From an uncultured archaeon (GTDB lineage: Archaea > Altiarchaeota > Altiarchaeia > JAFGQM01), in contig CAZQBY010000020.1 in NCBI GenBank assembly GCA_964592405.1, positions 1-10,284 on the forward strand: DNA of 10,284 nt. The letters run 5' to 3'. The notes under the pieces were generated by a model. The model searched no databases. It was given only the letters and a program-made list of their open reading frames with translations, and was not told the DNA's origin. Both the position numbers and the translations under genes were made by a program. Positions 2,456 through 8,695 of the stretch are shown one piece after another. The stretch's first letter is position 1. Every line of letters starts with the position of its first letter.

Positions 2456-2538
2456 CCGCTCCTGTTTGTCCGTTTCTGTTTGCTGTTTCTGATTTTTATT
2501 GATATTATCTTAAAAAACAGAAACTCCGGACCCCGGCT

Positions 2539-2551
2539 AAGCTTTTTATAT
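2539..2551. promoter_or_regulatory. Putative TATA element in the divergent prenyltransferase/smc intergenic region
   Basis: AAGCTTTTTATAT reads TTTTTATA on + and TATAAAAA on -, inside an AT-rich gap between divergent genes. The same AGCTTTT(T)A core occurs at 8269 and 8691. Confidence 0.45.
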
Positions 2552-2637: not shown

Positions 2638-5600
2638 ATGAAGCTGAGAAGGGTGGAGATAAGGGGATTCAAGTCCTTTGGCAAGCCAACGCTGCTGGAG
2701 TTCCCTGAAGGCATAAGCGCAATAGTCGGGCCAAACGGCAGCGGCAAGAGCAATATAATAGATGCCATCTGTTTTGCTCTGGGATATCCAAGCCGTAACC
2801 TGCGCGCAACCAAGGCACAGGAATTGATACACACTGGCAAGCTAAACGTCCCACACGCCAAGGTGTCACTGGTCTTTCAGGCAGACGACCGCGTCATGGA
2901 GGTCAAGCGGAAGGTGGACCGGAAGGGGAGGAGCGTCTACAAGATCAACTCCATTGTTACCAATCTGGAGAATCTGCATGATGTTCTGAGTAAGTATTCT
3001 ATACCAAAAGATGGTTTCAATATAGTGATGCAGAACGACATAACAAAATTTATTGAAATCAAACCGCATGAGCGGAGGCGTGTCTTGGATGAGATGTCTG
3101 GCATAGCCGGCTATGAAGAGAAGAAGAAAAAGGCTCTTGAGGAGCTCGCTGTGGTGGAGAGGAGGATATCGGACACCAACCTCATACTCTCCGAGAAAAA
3201 GGGTTATCTGGAGGAGATAGGCAGGGACCGTGAAATAGCCATAAGATACAGGGATATGCAGGAGGAACTCAGGACCAGCAGGGCTGTGTATCTCTACTCT
3301 ACCCTCTATGACCTAGAAAACCGGGCTGGTGAGCTGGAGGCCCGAATGGAGGAGGTCGCCAAGGAAAAGGACATAAAAATAATTGAGCTGGCACGCATAG
3401 AGGAGGAGATAGATGATATTGAAAAGCACCTTGAGGAGATAACCGGTAACATAATAAGGACCGGTGGTGTGGAGTCAGGAGAGATAAAGGGGGAGATCGG
3501 CGCTCTAAAATCCGCAATAGAGAAAAAGCAGGAGGAAATACAGTTCCTGAAGGATGAGATAGCATCAAAGGAGGAGCGACAGAGGGAGAATGCCAAGCAG
3601 CAGAGGGAGCTGAGAGCCCGGATAAAAGAGCATGAGGAAAGCCTCAAAAGACTTCGGGAGGAGATTAGCGGTGTTGAAAAAGCGCTCATGGCAGAGGAGA
3701 AGGAGCGCGAGAAGAAGACTCAGGAGTATGACAATTCCGAACTTATCGCCCTTGAAAAGGAAAGAAAGGTGGCGTTGGAGAGTCTGTTTGAGACCAAAAA
3801 ATCATTAATGCTCATTGAAAAAGAGCTGGACATCATAGCCAAGAGGAGGGATGAGATTACCGAGTCTCTGGGGGACAGGAGAAAGAGGTTAAAGGGATTA
3901 AAGGGCGAACTGGCAGATATGGATGCCAGGATATCCAAGCTTGGCATAGAGGTGGAAAGGATCGAAAAGGCAGGGCGTAGTCTAGAGGAGACAAAATCCA
4001 AGCTCTCCAAGCTCTTCCAAGAATTTGCGCGCCTAGAAAGTGAGATAAAGACCATCGAGCGGATGGAAGCCAGAGTGGGGGAGAGCGAATCCCTCAGATT
4101 TGTCCTCAAGCACAAGGATAAGGGATATATAGGTCAGGTGAGCGAGCTAGGCAGGTCTCCGGAAAAATATAGGGTAGCCCTTGAGGCCGCTGCCGGAAAT
4201 AAATCCGGCTGTCTGGTTGTAAAGGACGACAAAGCGGCAGAGTTCTACATAGAGGGCCTGAGGAAAAACAAGATTGGGAGAGCTACCTTCCTGCCGCTCA
4301 ACAGGATACATGGGCCGAAACTCCGGCAGATAAAGGGCAAGGGTGTCATAGGCTATGCCAAGGATCTGATAAAATGTGAGAGAAAATACCAAAAGGTCTT
4401 TGACCTTGTATTTGGTGACACGCTGGTGGTTGAGGATATTGAGGCAGCGCGCAGGGTCGGCATAGGCAAGATTCGGATGGTAACGCTCAACGGTGATCTG
4501 ATATCGGCCGGGGGAGCTATGACCGGCGGATATTACAAAAAGTCAGTTATTACCTTCTCAAGTATTTCTGAAAGGAAAAAAAGGCTTGAAGAGGTAAAGA
4601 GGGAGATCGCCAGCCTGAAGGAAAGGAAGGAAAGGCTCGAAAGACAGTTAGAGGGGAAGGGTACAAGCAGTCTTGATGTCATGAGAGAAAGAAGGGCAAA
4701 CATCCTTGAGAAGATAGAAACCGTGGAATCAGAGATTGCAGAATTTGAGAAGGAGCTATCGGAGCTGTCATCGCAGGAGAAGGAGCTGGATGAGAAAAAA
4801 GTCAGAAGCGAGAAGGATATAGCAAGGAAGGAGAAGGAGCTCAGGGGGATTGAGGGAAAGATGGATGTGGGAGCGCTTGACAAGATGAAGGGCATCCTGC
4901 AGGAGATAGATAACAAAATCCACGATTTGAGAGATCACAAATTCGAATTACAAAGCCGGGAAAACGCCATAATCGGTGAGATCCGGTCCCTGGAGTCAAA
5001 GATAAAGGATCTGGAAGTCCAAACAGATGAAATAAACACATCAATATCCAAGTTCAGGGATAAGATACGGGAGGGAATAAACCAGATAACGCAGTCTGGG
5101 AAAAAACTGAAAGAATTGGAGGAGAAACACTCCATCATAACCGCAGAATCTCAGGGATTGTTCAAGGAACAGGAAAGGCTAAACCAGCTGCTGAAAGAAC
5201 TTGGCGAGAAAAAGGGCATAATAGAGGCATCTGTGGAGCGTTTGAAGAATGAATACAATGAGCTGGAGGTGAAAAAAGCCAAAACAGATGCCAAGCTCGA
5301 AGAGATCCGGGCAGGTCTTGAGGGTATAGAGCCGCCTCCCAAGGAGCAGATGGAGGGGGCAAACATCCCAGAGCTCAGGCGGAGGATCAGGCAGCTTGAG
5401 AGTGAGCTTGGCTCTATTGACGGCGTCAATCTGCGCGCGGTGGATATGTATGAGGAGCTGGAGAAGCAGTATAACGAGATAAAGGAAAAGAACCAGATGT
5501 TATACATTGAAAAAGAGAAGATATACGATCTGATTGAAACCATTGAGGAAAAGAAAAGGGCAGTTTTCTATGATGTTTTCAACAAGGTCAGGGAGAACTT

Positions 5601-6015
5601 CACCCGTATAATATCTGAATTATATCCAACCAGCGAGGGCAGTCTCCGGCTGGAGAATGAAGCAGACCCGTTCAACTCCGGTCTTCTTATTGAGATCAAG
5701 CCAAGAGGCCGGGAAGGCATAGGCATCGATTCCTTGTCAGGCGGGGAGAAGACGCTGACGGCTCTGGCCTTTCTGATGGCGATGCAGAGCGTAACACCAA
5801 GTCCATTCTACATACTGGATGAGGTGGACGCGTCTTTGGACCAGGAGAATGTCTTGCGCCTGACCAGATTCCTCAAGAACCGCAAGCAGTCGCAGTTTAT
5901 ATTGATAAGCCATAACCCGGAGACTGTCAAACATATGGATTCGGTAATAGGTGTCCACATGCAGGATGGACTCTCGCGGGTTGTTGGTGTGAGGATGCAG
6001 GAGGCGGAGGCATGA
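2638..6015 (+). CDS. smc: Chromosome segregation/condensin ATPase Smc (1125 aa from ATG 2638)
   Basis: Typical N-terminus MKLRRVEIRGFKSF, Walker A GPNGSGKSNI, long coiled coils, hinge motifs GRATFLPL and VTLNGDLISAGGAMTGG, signature LSGGEK, Walker B/D-loop ILDEVDASLD and H-loop ISH. ATG 2638 is preferred over TTG 2611. Confidence 0.98.
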   Translation: MKLRRVEIRGFKSFGKPTLLEFPEGISAIVGPNGSGKSNIIDAICFALGYPSRNLRATKAQELIHTGKLNVPHAKVSLVFQADDRVMEVKRKVDRKGRSVYKINSIVTNLENLHDVLSKYSIPKDGFNIVMQNDITKFIEIKPHERRRVLDEMSGIAGYEEKKKKALEELAVVERRISDTNLILSEKKGYLEEIGRDREIAIRYRDMQEELRTSRAVYLYSTLYDLENRAGELEARMEEVAKEKDIKIIELARIEEEIDDIEKHLEEITGNIIRTGGVESGEIKGEIGALKSAIEKKQEEIQFLKDEIASKEERQRENAKQQRELRARIKEHEESLKRLREEISGVEKALMAEEKEREKKTQEYDNSELIALEKERKVALESLFETKKSLMLIEKELDIIAKRRDEITESLGDRRKRLKGLKGELADMDARISKLGIEVERIEKAGRSLEETKSKLSKLFQEFARLESEIKTIERMEARVGESESLRFVLKHKDKGYIGQVSELGRSPEKYRVALEAAAGNKSGCLVVKDDKAAEFYIEGLRKNKIGRATFLPLNRIHGPKLRQIKGKGVIGYAKDLIKCERKYQKVFDLVFGDTLVVEDIEAARRVGIGKIRMVTLNGDLISAGGAMTGGYYKKSVITFSSISERKKRLEEVKREIASLKERKERLERQLEGKGTSSLDVMRERRANILEKIETVESEIAEFEKELSELSSQEKELDEKKVRSEKDIARKEKELRGIEGKMDVGALDKMKGILQEIDNKIHDLRDHKFELQSRENAIIGEIRSLESKIKDLEVQTDEINTSISKFRDKIREGINQITQSGKKLKELEEKHSIITAESQGLFKEQERLNQLLKELGEKKGIIEASVERLKNEYNELEVKKAKTDAKLEEIRAGLEGIEPPPKEQMEGANIPELRRRIRQLESELGSIDGVNLRAVDMYEELEKQYNEIKEKNQMLYIEKEKIYDLIETIEEKKRAVFYDVFNKVRENFTRIISELYPTSEGSLRLENEADPFNSGLLIEIKPRGREGIGIDSLSGGEKTLTALAFLMAMQSVTPSPFYILDEVDASLDQENVLRLTRFLKNRKQSQFILISHNPETVKHMDSVIGVHMQDGLSRVVGVRMQEAEA

Positions 6016-6049
6016 TGCAGGGGAAACACACGGCTTGGAAGAAAACAAA

Positions 6050-6772
6050 ATGAACATACTTGAGAGCGCAGAGAGGGGGGTCTACTGGAAGAGTATAATA
6101 TATGATATTATTGCCAAGGAAGGGTTTGATCCATGGGATATTGACGTCGGCATGCTTGCGGATTCATATATCCAAAAGGTGCGCGAGATAAGGATGATAA
6201 ACTTTGAGGTCCCGGGAACTGTGATCCTTGTCGGCTCTGTCCTTCTTAAGATGAAAAGCGATGTGGTTTCCGGTCAGACATTTATGTTTGAGGAGAGTCT
6301 TGTCTCTACAGGGGATGCGGAAAGTCCTGAAGGACCTGTTGCAGATTTTGAATCAGATTTTGAATCCCCTCTGGAGGTCGGGGAAGAGGAACTTCCCCCC
6401 TCCCTGATAGAACCAAGGCTCTATGTCCGCAGGATACCCAAGAGGAAGGTCACGTTGCCGGAGCTGATAACCTTCCTGAAGAGGGTAGTGGGGCAGGTAG
6501 AGAAGAAGGAGCGGCTGAGGCGCGAAATGAAAGAACATCAGCTGGAGGTACAGATAGCCAAGAAGAATGTTGAGAGGATAATGCGCGAGGTTTACAGGGA
6601 GATACGGCGCCTCTCTGCAGGTGGCAGGACAACCTTCAGGGAACTTGTGGAGGAATGGAAAAGAGAGAGTATAATCGCTTACCTGATACCCGTTCTCCAT
6701 TTGGCTCATAAGGAGAAGATAAATGTTGAGCAGGAGGAACTCTTTGGAGAGATATTTATCTCTCCCAGATAG
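6050..6772 (+). CDS. scpA: Kleisin subunit ScpA
   Basis: N-terminal FDPWDIDV and LLKMKS motifs, an acidic linker, RKVTLPELITFL and a C-terminal winged-helix end LHLAHKEKINVEQEELFGEIFI. It lies directly after smc. The start could be TTG 6035, ATG 6050 or, with a frameshift, ATG 6012. Confidence 0.95.
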   Translation: MNILESAERGVYWKSIIYDIIAKEGFDPWDIDVGMLADSYIQKVREIRMINFEVPGTVILVGSVLLKMKSDVVSGQTFMFEESLVSTGDAESPEGPVADFESDFESPLEVGEEELPPSLIEPRLYVRRIPKRKVTLPELITFLKRVVGQVEKKERLRREMKEHQLEVQIAKKNVERIMREVYREIRRLSAGGRTTFRELVEEWKRESIIAYLIPVLHLAHKEKINVEQEELFGEIFISPR

Positions 6773-6781
6773 CCAAGGTAA

Positions 6782-7372
6782 ATGGACAGAATTAAAAAGA
6801 TTATAGAGGGTGCGCTATTCATATCGGGGCGCTGGATGACCGCAGAAGACCTTTCCAGAGTGGCATGCAGCGGCTCTGTTGGGAATGTGAGAGAAGCCCT
6901 CAGGAAGCTAAAAGATGAATATGAACGGAGGGATGGCGGTATAATCCTCAATGAGGTCAACGGGAGATTCAGGCTTGAGGTATCCCCAGATATCCGCGAC
7001 AGGGTATACTATCTTGCACCCGAGCCGGAACTTAGTCCTGCCCTTATAAAGACCCTGGCGCTTATAGCCTACAAGCAGCCCATAAGCCAGAGCAAAGTTG
7101 TCAGAATAATTGGCAACCGGGCCTATGATTATATCAGGGAGCTTCGCAAAAAGGAGTTTATAACGGTAAGGAAGAAGGGCCGAACAAAGATACTCTCCAC
7201 CACAGGTCATTTCCGGAAATACTTTGCCCTTCCAGAAGGGGTCAAATGGGAGCCGGAACTTGGATCAAAGATACTGGAAGAAAGGCAAAAACGGCTGGAT
7301 GAGATGCCCGAGGGACCGGATGCCGGGGATGATGGCCCGGAGGAAGGCCGGGATGAGATGACGGGGGGATGA
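6782..7372 (+). CDS. scpB: KITE subunit ScpB
   Basis: IIEGALFISG, ELSPALIKTLALIAYKQPI and TTGHFRKYF are ScpB hallmarks, followed by an acidic disordered tail. It follows scpA after 9 nt, with AAGGT upstream. Confidence 0.96.
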   Translation: MDRIKKIIEGALFISGRWMTAEDLSRVACSGSVGNVREALRKLKDEYERRDGGIILNEVNGRFRLEVSPDIRDRVYYLAPEPELSPALIKTLALIAYKQPISQSKVVRIIGNRAYDYIRELRKKEFITVRKKGRTKILSTTGHFRKYFALPEGVKWEPELGSKILEERQKRLDEMPEGPDAGDDGPEEGRDEMTGG

Positions 7373-8265
7373 AGAAGATGGTAAGGCTGAGACTCAAAAA
7401 GCACAGGGACATCCTCTATAACAAGATAGTGGAGGCCCTTGGAGGACAAATCAGGGATCCGTGGGAGAGGAGGATGTTCAGGACTATGGTAAGGCAGACG
7501 CGCTTCAGACCCGTAGATGAGCTTGGAGGCGGAAGAGGCTGGAAGATCAGGGGTGAGAATGTTCATCATATCATCATAGATGCCAGAGGCCACAAATACA
7601 TAGGACCTGCAACCGTATATGTGCCCGCAGAGACTATGAAAAAGCTCAGGTGGCTTGAATCAAAGAATCCTGAGAGGAGGAGACTGGCAGAAGAAGCACT
7701 CCATACAATCTCCCACGAACTGGCCCACGATTATTTCAAGGCCATCAATTATGAAGCCCGTCTGACCAGATACCTAAGGGACAATCCCAAGATAGTCGAG
7801 AGATATCTGAGGAGGTTTCTGGGAGGAGCCACTGGATTCAGGAATCCGGCTGTTGGGGAAAAAGCAAGGATGCTGGTCAAGAAAAACCCGTTATACTGGG
7901 CACGTTATGTGGCACATACCGCGCATGAAGCCGGAGCCGATATGATGGCTGCAGAAGCAGTTGTCAGGATAGCCGAAGGCAGGCATGCACGGGCACGCGA
8001 TCTGGACCGGCTCACTGAGTTCCGTCCGTTCACCGTCAGGGAATTTATCAGACTCCAAAGGGGTGAAAGGCTGGCTGGAGTGAAGAAACCCAGGAAGCCT
8101 CCCCGGCTGGCAGAGCTCGCAAAGGGTATTGAGTATACCTCCATGCGGATAATGGAGAACCTTGGTAATCTCTACAGGATTAGCCATCCGTCAAAGGCCA
8201 GAATCCCGCCAAGGTCCTTCACAGCCAAAGCAGTGCATGGGAAAGTGAGGAGGCGTGTGGCCTAA
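7369..8265 (+). CDS. Hypothetical basic protein with HExxH + ExxxD motifs (putative gluzincin-type metallopeptidase)
   Basis: 298 aa with HELAH (aa 116-120, nt 7714-7728) in a helical context, followed by HEAGADMMAAE (E187, D191). About 67 of 298 residues are K/R, and no TM or signal segment is evident. The start overlaps the scpB stop (ATGA). Confidence 0.75.
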   Translation: MKKMVRLRLKKHRDILYNKIVEALGGQIRDPWERRMFRTMVRQTRFRPVDELGGGRGWKIRGENVHHIIIDARGHKYIGPATVYVPAETMKKLRWLESKNPERRRLAEEALHTISHELAHDYFKAINYEARLTRYLRDNPKIVERYLRRFLGGATGFRNPAVGEKARMLVKKNPLYWARYVAHTAHEAGADMMAAEAVVRIAEGRHARARDLDRLTEFRPFTVREFIRLQRGERLAGVKKPRKPPRLAELAKGIEYTSMRIMENLGNLYRISHPSKARIPPRSFTAKAVHGKVRRRVA

Positions 8266-8277
8266 AAAAGCTTTTTA
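8264..8277 (+). promoter_or_regulatory. BRE/TATA-like element (AAAAAAGCTTTTTA), possibly also the T-rich terminator of the smc operon
   Basis: An A-run followed by TTTTTA starts 29 nt before ATG 8301, which matches leaderless archaeal spacing. It sits immediately after the upstream stop codon. Confidence 0.5.
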
Positions 8278-8300
8278 CTCTTTCGCCATTATAGATGTCA

Positions 8301-8621
8301 ATGGTCATACATCTCACCCAGAAGGAAATAGAGTTCCTCCAAGCGGCCGGAGTAAATAGAATCAGGGAGGCTGCCTATCATTTCGTCCGGACCAAACTGG
8401 TAAATGGTGGTAACATACCGGACAGAGGGCACCCGGTGTTCAAGGCCATGCGCGCGATAGGAGTACAGGACAGGGAGGGCCTAGAGCGTGAGTTTTCCAT
8501 ACCCAAGGACAAGAAGCTGACTGAGAGCCAGGTGGATGTAATTGTCGAGAACATTATGGGCTGGCTCAGGGGTGAGATGCGCAGCTCGGGCAAGGTGCAG
8601 GCGAAGATAGGCGAATTCTAG
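8301..8621 (+). CDS. Hypothetical protein (~106 aa) with a C-terminal PIP-box-like motif
   Basis: The ORF fills the gap and has its own TATA-like element. ATG 8301 is preferred over 8295 on spacing. It ends ...KVQAKIGEF* (QxxIxxF). Confidence 0.75.
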   Translation: MVIHLTQKEIEFLQAAGVNRIREAAYHFVRTKLVNGGNIPDRGHPVFKAMRAIGVQDREGLEREFSIPKDKKLTESQVDVIVENIMGWLRGEMRSSGKVQAKIGEF

Positions 8622-8665
8622 AGGCTCAATTCCGGAACTTCTAACAGCTTTAGCTGCTGTAACCC

Positions 8666-8695
8666 GTAGCAGTATAGCTTGTAGCAGTATAGCTT
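8666..8695 (+). repeat. Perfect 15-bp tandem direct repeat GTAGCAGTATAGCTT x2
   Basis: Copies at 8666-8680 and 8681-8695, read directly from the sequence. Confidence 0.95.

Follow-up and report, generated by a model that had tools for sequence, protein, structure and literature searches.

The window analysed here is the whole of a 10,284 nucleotide (nt) stretch (positions 1 to 10,284 of contig CAZQBY010000020.1, assembly GCA_964592405.1) from an uncultured archaeon of the Altiarchaeota. Its genome (G000; 1.13 Mb, 87% complete) was compared with seven other genomes of the same family (G001 to G007) and with 53 other genomes of the phylum. The window carries nop5, a polyprenyl synthase gene, smc, scpA, scpB, a 298 amino acid (aa) open reading frame with the working name X, a DUF4186-like gene, a fibrillarin gene and corA (Table 1). 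As Smc, ScpA and ScpB are all encoded (TIGR02169, PF02616 and TIGR00281/PF04079, respectively), the row includes a complete Smc-ScpAB condensin. X, which follows it, is a predicted protease whose strongly diverged versions have been exchanged between related genomes. A sequence-only reading had described smc, scpA, scpB, an ATGA overlap, HELAH and EAGAD motifs, approximately 22% Lys plus Arg and a soluble X product, all of which are present, and had proposed, among other roles, that X may regulate the condensin ring.

Table 1. Positions of the genes and promoter-like sites in and around the smc unit of the window
Feature	Position	Strand	Remarks
TATA-like site, archaeal (CTAAGCTTTTTATA)	2536..2549	+	upstream of smc; likely promoter of smc-scpA-scpB-X
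smc, single canonical condensin ATPase of the genome	2638..6015	+	TIGR02169 753 bits, cut-off 729; one match genome-wide
scpA, kleisin	6050..6772	+	PF02616 E 1e-12; homologues begin at Met 6050; TTG start at 6035 also possible
scpB, KITE subunit	6782..7372	+	TIGR00281 above cut-off, PF04079; family-typical C-terminal helix and variable acidic tail (alignment of 17)
X, predicted soluble basic gluzincin	7369..8265	+	298 aa; probable start 7378; invariant residues and fold match
TATA-like site directly after the X stop	8266..8279	+	predicted promoter of the next gene, closing the smc unit after X; score 7.7
DUF4186-like gene	8295..8621	+	PF13811 E 2e-14; conserved downstream flank of the exchangeable slot

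X contains the motifs H116-E117-L-A-H120 and E187-A-G-A-D191 and is very basic, with 67 Lys and Arg residues among 298 (22.5%) and an isoelectric point (pI) of 11.1. Its highest 19-residue hydropathy value is 0.58, so no membrane segment is expected, and neither a signal peptide nor a prodomain was found in the protein. Word-based searches, a full phmmer search and genome searches, covering proteins of near length, yielded 21 distinct homologues with 19-78% identity to X. Only H116, E117, H120, E187, D191, R219 and P220 are invariant in 21/21, and one homologue (that of G006) has a HExxxH variant. The combination HExxH...ExxAD arises in 0.045% of 20,000 shuffles; because shuffling so rarely gives the motif, and because the five ligand and base positions are invariant in every homologue, the motif pair is above chance.

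An AlphaFold2 model of X built from 14 sequences (an earlier model from nine was poor) has a mean predicted local distance difference test score (pLDDT) of 68, with values of 80-93 over most of residues 81-230 and below 50 past residue 233. The modelled catalytic domain (residues ~10-232) consists of a three-strand sheet, the HExxH helix (101-125), a helical insert that spaces H120 and E187 by 61-68 residues, the glutamate helix (174-203, pLDDT ~90) and R219-P220. From there the chain runs through a basic Pro/Lys linker into a conserved amphipathic helix (~246-270) and ends with an RRxx tail. In a wide VIA fold search, the top match to this model was tricorn factor F3 (1z1w; Z 8.9, rmsd (root-mean-square deviation) 3.7, 147 aligned), and further matches included other M1 enzymes, neprilysin (M13), thermolysin (M4), BepA (M48), BlaR1 (M56) and the archaeal minigluzincins proabylysin (4jiu), projannalysin (4jix) and selecase (4qhf) (Z 5.5-5.7). 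These Z values are middling taken singly, but 49 of the 50 matches listed are chains that, by title and family, we take to have the zincin fold; IrrE is absent among these 50. Since the list of fold matches agrees with the invariant residues, X can safely be assigned to the gluzincins on its sequence and predicted structure, as its zinc-ligand pattern had suggested to the sequence-only reading. Judging by the helix layout and their invariance, H116, H120 and E187 probably meet at one zinc site. D191, which stands four residues past the third ligand, and the later invariant Arg recall what we take to be D170 and R203 of thermolysin, a correspondence that a literature search did not confirm.

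With the gluzincins of clan MA(E) (neprilysin/ECE M13, M1, M4, M48 and M56), X thus shares the sheet, the HExxH helix and the glutamate helix, but it differs from them in sequence, with no match to the M1, M4, M13, M48 or M56 families, and in being a single soluble domain with the helical insert described above and a basic tail. Foldseek searches of the model against PDB and BFVD returned nothing at an E-value of 0.001, and a profile search of PDB sequences gave one chance-level match. No real match to X was found in Pfam, NCBIfam, PHROGs (none below E 0.06) or PADLOC, and the ESM Atlas offered leads of 0.88-0.91 only, mostly zincin-like clusters. No paralogue was found in its own genome. X represents a new gluzincin family, in which all catalytic residues are preserved and which corresponds to no entry of these libraries.

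The position of X beside smc-scpAB, noted in the window, recurs in the survey of homologues: X lies directly behind scpB and before the DUF4186 gene in 7/8 family genomes. In the eighth, G004, smc, scpA and scpB are present, X is missing and scpB runs straight to the DUF4186 gene. The DUF4186 gene therefore follows either X or, in G004, scpB in 8/8 family genomes, and it stands just before the fibrillarin gene with a promoter-like site of its own. A profile search found X in 0/53 other genomes of the phylum, among which Smc was found in 46/53, ScpA in 49/53 and ScpB in 31/33. The matches within the family are partly circular because the profile contained them; when left out, the G001 and G006 versions matched a 14-sequence profile with E-values of 2e-32 and 0.001, respectively. 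Gene context is that of the family loci, together with the downstream side (L048) of P0002, and sets aside 13 of the 21 homologues (P0004-P0006, P0008, P0009, P0011-P0013, P0015 and P0018-P0021).

Because the whole row smc-scpA-scpB-X-DUF4186-fibrillarin-corA is syntenic in the family, the seven adjacencies of X and scpB represent one inherited arrangement and not seven events. Among the phylum genomes searched, smc, scpA and scpB are contiguous in the window's family only and lie apart elsewhere; at 22 scpB loci opened outside the family, neither smc, scpA nor X adjoins scpB. The functional tie to the condensin ring that the sequence-only reading had drawn from this position is not supported, given a single inherited row, the absence of X from G004 and its uncoupling from smc in G005 (see below). 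The link of X to condensin is positional and unproven. Two co-folding runs that combined ScpA and two copies of ScpB with X (residues 4-298, from the alignment of 21 sequences) both scored 0.00, which gives no answer and is evidence neither way.

Within this conserved row, X itself is not conserved. Its versions fall into at least three deep classes: class A (the window, G002 and G007, and more distantly G005), a class B-like group (G001, P0012 and P0013, and loosely G003) and class C (G006 and five others). This grouping disagrees with the phylogeny of the hosts. The sister genomes G001 and G002 (100% bootstrap) are an example: their Smc, ScpA, ScpB and DUF4186 proteins are 76, 84, 85 and 90% identical, respectively, whereas their X proteins are only 21% identical. 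The X of G002 is 65% identical to that of the window and 55% identical to that of G007, a member of another genus. Approximately unbiased (AU) tests reject an X clade of G001 and G002 (p 5e-5) as well as one of G003 and G006, which belong to the same genus (p 7e-5), and a helix deletion in X is common to G001, P0012, P0013 and G003. At the DNA level, G001 and G002 are 80% identical until the start of X and 83% identical from the last 20 nt of X on, with no match between.

Fast evolution was considered as the source of this divergence and rejected, as X is constrained within an allele class. Between the X of the window (class A) and that of L048, nonsynonymous divergence (dN) is 0.14, compared with 0.13-0.21 for three neighbouring genes, and its ratio to synonymous divergence (dN/dS) is ~0.08, with dS near saturation. 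Each version of X is under purifying selection. Because identity breaks at the ends of X and X is constrained within class A, the comparisons indicate that old, constrained versions have been exchanged as whole genes, presumably by recombination. The exchanged versions are 20-25% identical, and the ScpA linker and the ScpB extension are unchanged across them, also in G004, which has no X. A fixed chromosomal slot at which genera trade alleles of 20-25% identity is a mark of conflict genes.

To locate promoter-like sites, a TATA matrix was trained on the intergenic DNA of this genome (background 95th percentile 3.4, for shorter windows). The site before smc in the window scores 15.7, above all 298 coding windows, and with similar sites in G002, G003, G005 and G007 the scores before smc are 12-16 in 5/5 genomes. 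Scores before the DUF4186 gene are 7.3-15.5 in 8/8 family genomes, while those before X are below zero in 5/7, 3.1 in G002 and 15.5 in G005. With no such site before X in five genomes and one before the next gene in all eight, the smc transcript probably ends with X in most genomes, including that of the window. In G005, a hairpin-U terminator and a TATA-like site lie between scpB and X, which indicates that X has been uncoupled from the smc unit at least once. The coupling of X to the condensin operon, as originally proposed, is probable in the five genomes where X has no promoter-like site and not in G005.

At the scpB-X junction of the window, the ATG of X overlaps the scpB stop codon as ATGA. 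Met4 (7378) is a rival start: the database gene call is 295 aa in length, and the Atlas record and three close homologues also begin there. Met4 may be the true start, in which case X would begin 5 nt past the scpB stop instead of overlapping it. The junction is bridged by contigs of a separate run (X3 record 13, 7273-7821, with one difference); X lies outside the contigs of runs X4 and X5, from which no conclusion follows. Tight junctions are frequent in this genome, with 103/759 same-strand junctions being -4 overlaps and 419/759 being ≤30 nt, and the -4 overlaps are overcounted because the gene caller takes the longest start.

X was compared with other zincins and with systems in which an enzyme accompanies an SMC complex. 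M48 HtpX is unlike X, which has no hydrophobic segment and no PF01435 match, and the possibility that X is a derived HtpX was rejected (hhalign probability 0.8%; htpX sits elsewhere in 7/8 family genomes). Outside the family, htpX often lies behind scpB, either next to it or with lemA in between, at a distance of up to 250 nt in 9/31 genomes and up to 1.6 kb in 14/31 (for example at L019, L020, L021, L023, L027, L030-L032, L034 and L038), an unexplained echo of the position of X. M78 proteins (IrrE/PprI, ImmA and CapP) share with X a soluble HExxH protein and the ExxAD third-ligand helix, the latter found also in M48, but the matches are at the motif level only and involve only the G001 version (M78 E 0.026; capP E 0.008). 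Neither the X of the window nor the 14 aligned members match PF06114, and no helix-turn-helix repressor gene was found beside X in seven loci. IrrE, PprI and CapP are described as responding to DNA damage or single-stranded DNA. With regard to Wss1/SPRTN, which are likewise soluble HExxH metallopeptidases, X has no SprT or WLM match in Pfam and a weak fold match (Z 4.8, rank 49).

The X locus shares with Wadjet (JetABCD) and Lamassu (LmuABC) the placement of an enzyme gene with the genes of an SMC complex. The sequence-only reading had likened the place of X to that of JetD in Wadjet; the position after the kleisin and KITE genes agrees with this, but neither the Wadjet subunits nor Toprim were matched. 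Unlike in Wadjet, Smc passes TIGR02169, ScpA and ScpB match no PADLOC model and X is a predicted zincin rather than a Toprim JetD. Lamassu differs in that the genes here encode canonical Smc, ScpA and ScpB, matches to LmuB are partial, LmuA was not matched and X is not of the trypsin type. On the features tested, X belongs neither to M48 or M78 nor to Wadjet or Lamassu. Zincins built like X are common in conflict systems, whose metallopeptidase (MPTase) domains have a three-stranded sheet, an N-terminal helix, HEXXH and glutamate helices, variable inserts and a HEXXXH variant (PMC5512222). X shares these fold elements with the MPTases of polyvalent proteins and other conflict systems, including the variant seen in G006; it differs in that it is encoded on the chromosome by a gene of its own, at a constant position, whereas those domains form part of phage or plasmid polyproteins.

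Based on these results, we consider it about an even chance (a probability of roughly 0.5) that X is an exchangeable conflict-type protease that rides on the smc promoter and has an outside target. X would then be a zinc endopeptidase in which H116, H120 and E187 bind zinc and E117 acts as the general base; its gene would be transcribed together with smc-scpA-scpB, as the final cistron, and its substrate would probably not be condensin. The slot between scpB and the DUF4186 gene would serve as a cassette, with conserved flanks that let relatives recombine whole diverged versions. The simplest reason for the retention of several old versions would be that lineages face different targets, for instance proteins of hosts, prey or viruses. 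A dedicated partner of condensin agrees less well with the evidence than a weapon aimed at outside proteins, and X may be part of a lineage-wide set of arginine-rich, enzyme-fold orphans at the tails of housekeeping operons.

Several observations weigh against this interpretation. No export route was found, with TatC and a TraG/VirB4-type ATPase both undetected in the 87%-complete genome, and X has no signal peptide. Neither a target nor an immunity gene has been identified for X, and no relative of it was found in viral contigs. The G001 and G003 versions form long branches, so that their placement in the tree may be an artefact, and the contig of G001, an assembly of 63% completeness, could be a chimera. 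X also behaves differently from other arginine-rich orphans: it keeps its slot in 7/8 genomes, compared with 2/6 for the slot behind fen1 and 1/5 for that behind polB, and in the same single-protein search it was found in 4/7 other family genomes, against 0/7, 2/7 and 1/7 for three control orphans. The arginine-rich set is itself defined by a composition filter, which also lets through ribosomal proteins and perhaps some spurious gene calls.

The far greater steadiness with which X keeps its slot, relative to two control orphans, leaves some probability for two explanations that link X to condensin. It is doubtful that X is a housekeeping chromosome protease that cuts ScpA or ScpB to open or trim the ring, or that clears roadblocks in the manner of Wss1/SPRTN by means of a basic DNA-binding surface. 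Predicted co-transcription with smc, a pI of 11, a dN near that of the neighbours within the common allele class and the presence of SPRTN (6mdx) low among the fold matches are consistent with this, as is the frequent occurrence elsewhere of another zinc protease gene, htpX, behind scpB. HtpX, however, is a membrane protease without detectable relation to X, the top fold matches are M1, M13 and M4 gluzincins and not SprT types, and basicity is common to dozens of unrelated orphans. X was not found in the 53 outside genomes, most of which have condensin, and is missing from G004. Moreover, a cognate enzyme should track its substrate, whereas X has been swapped at 21% identity with the ScpA linker nearly unchanged. 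The proposal of the sequence-only reading that X regulates the ring or cuts ScpA fares poorly for the same reason: an enzyme cognate to ScpA would not be expected to be replaced by versions of 20-25% identity next to an unreplaced ScpB and an unreplaced ScpA with its acidic linker.

In the other explanation, X would be an exchangeable effector on housekeeping condensin, occupying the place of JetD in Wadjet or LmuA in Lamassu: Smc-ScpAB would sense foreign DNA, dock X through the conserved C-terminal helix of X and trigger proteolysis, and alleles would be swapped in an arms race. Such swapping fits defence, X follows the kleisin and KITE genes in 7/8 genomes and lies inside the smc unit in 5/7, the contiguity of smc-scpA-scpB is peculiar to this family among the genomes searched, and the amphipathic helix is kept, by eye, in all three allele classes. 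Lamassu couples an SMC-like sensor with effectors that vary and include peptidases (PMC10586767). We nevertheless regard this explanation as unlikely. Smc is the only one of the genome and a canonical SMC_prok_A protein, no PADLOC model matches ScpA, ScpB or the X of the window (single weak matches occur among the 21 members), Smc, ScpA and ScpB are equally alike despite the loss of X in G004 and its uncoupling in G005, and each swap also replaces the putative docking helix. It is very improbable that X uses a zincin fold to act, in the manner of YbeY, on RNA or some other substrate that is not a protein and is tied to the nop5/fibrillarin neighbourhood. YbeY chains do occur among the fold matches (Z 5.4 and 5.0), nop5 and fibrillarin flank the row and X is very basic; however, X retains the peptidase general-base Glu and a Glu as third ligand, while YbeY uses three His as ligands, X lies outside the DUF4186-fibrillarin unit, and allele swapping is unexpected for rRNA maturation.

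If Smc-ScpAB did activate X or were cut by it, no protease would have been linked to a condensin of prokaryotes before X, and the finding would be relevant to the origin of SMC defence systems; as an effector, it would make the locus a living intermediate between chromosome-segregating Smc-ScpAB and such systems. The evidence leans away from activation or cleavage of this kind. The reach of any reading is limited by a small family (21 sequences) from uncultured organisms. In a literature search with subscription papers mostly outside its scope, no report was found of a protease partner of Smc-ScpAB or of the X family, nor of an arginine-rich effector class in DPANN.

The exchange of X alleles at a fixed slot suggests that these small archaeal genomes contain more arginine-rich orphan enzymes, among them some whose folds are directed at bacteria. 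Besides X, 64 genes of the window's genome were selected as encoding Arg-rich proteins of net basic charge, 30 of them without a Pfam match. The remainder include three ankyrin proteins, several GNATs, a GGDEF cyclase, an SLT transglycosylase, a YkuD transpeptidase, and ribosomal and other housekeeping proteins. Thirteen of the 30 orphans lie ≤30 nt behind a same-strand gene, such as fen1, polB or thyX, and a "partner" story could be constructed for each operon-tail orphan. The RRxx tail was considered as a genome-wide tag and rejected: because only 6/990 proteins end in this way, it is a trait of the X family and not of a class.

Two of these slots vary between genomes. The fen1 slot of the window's genome (G000:C11:32639-33115; L091:1501-1977) holds a basic orphan with, by eye, what we take to be a Cys-Gly loop; in G003 it holds a distant, double-length relative of this orphan (L094:2480-3418; E 0.005) and in G002 a PIN-like gene, and it is empty in G001 and G007. 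The polB slot (G000:C5:49792-50544; L086:1498-2250, minus strand) contains an Arg-rich orphan with an apparent, and presumably Cys-His-Asp, triad seen by eye. Relatives of this orphan stand in tandem at another place in G005, and a weak paralogue lies at C21:4747-5187. Basic orphans also occur inside the smc row of G002 (L006:15711-16499 and L006:8926-9597) and of G005 (L008:3336-3986 and 4072-4758); among them, one has an HTH-P-S..SxxD pattern that we take to be JAB-like and one is methyltransferase-like.

Three of the Arg-rich proteins have folds that are directed at bacteria, although they are encoded by an archaeon. These are the GGDEF cyclase, in which GGDEF is intact (G000:C2:2838-3596; L057:1-756), the SLT lytic transglycosylase (C14:20322-21566; L078:4-1245, minus strand), which has a twin-arginine-like start though TatC was not found in this genome, and the YkuD L,D-transpeptidase (C15:12585-13034; L079:12445-12891), which has no hydrophobic signal peptide. 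In the window itself, a short repeat (TAGCAGTATAGCTT twice) lies between the DUF4186 and fibrillarin genes at 8645-8695, where a contig of run X5 is 15 nt shorter. On the minus strand at 1165-1413, between nop5 and the polyprenyl synthase gene, a Lys/Ala-rich open stretch may encode a small basic protein.

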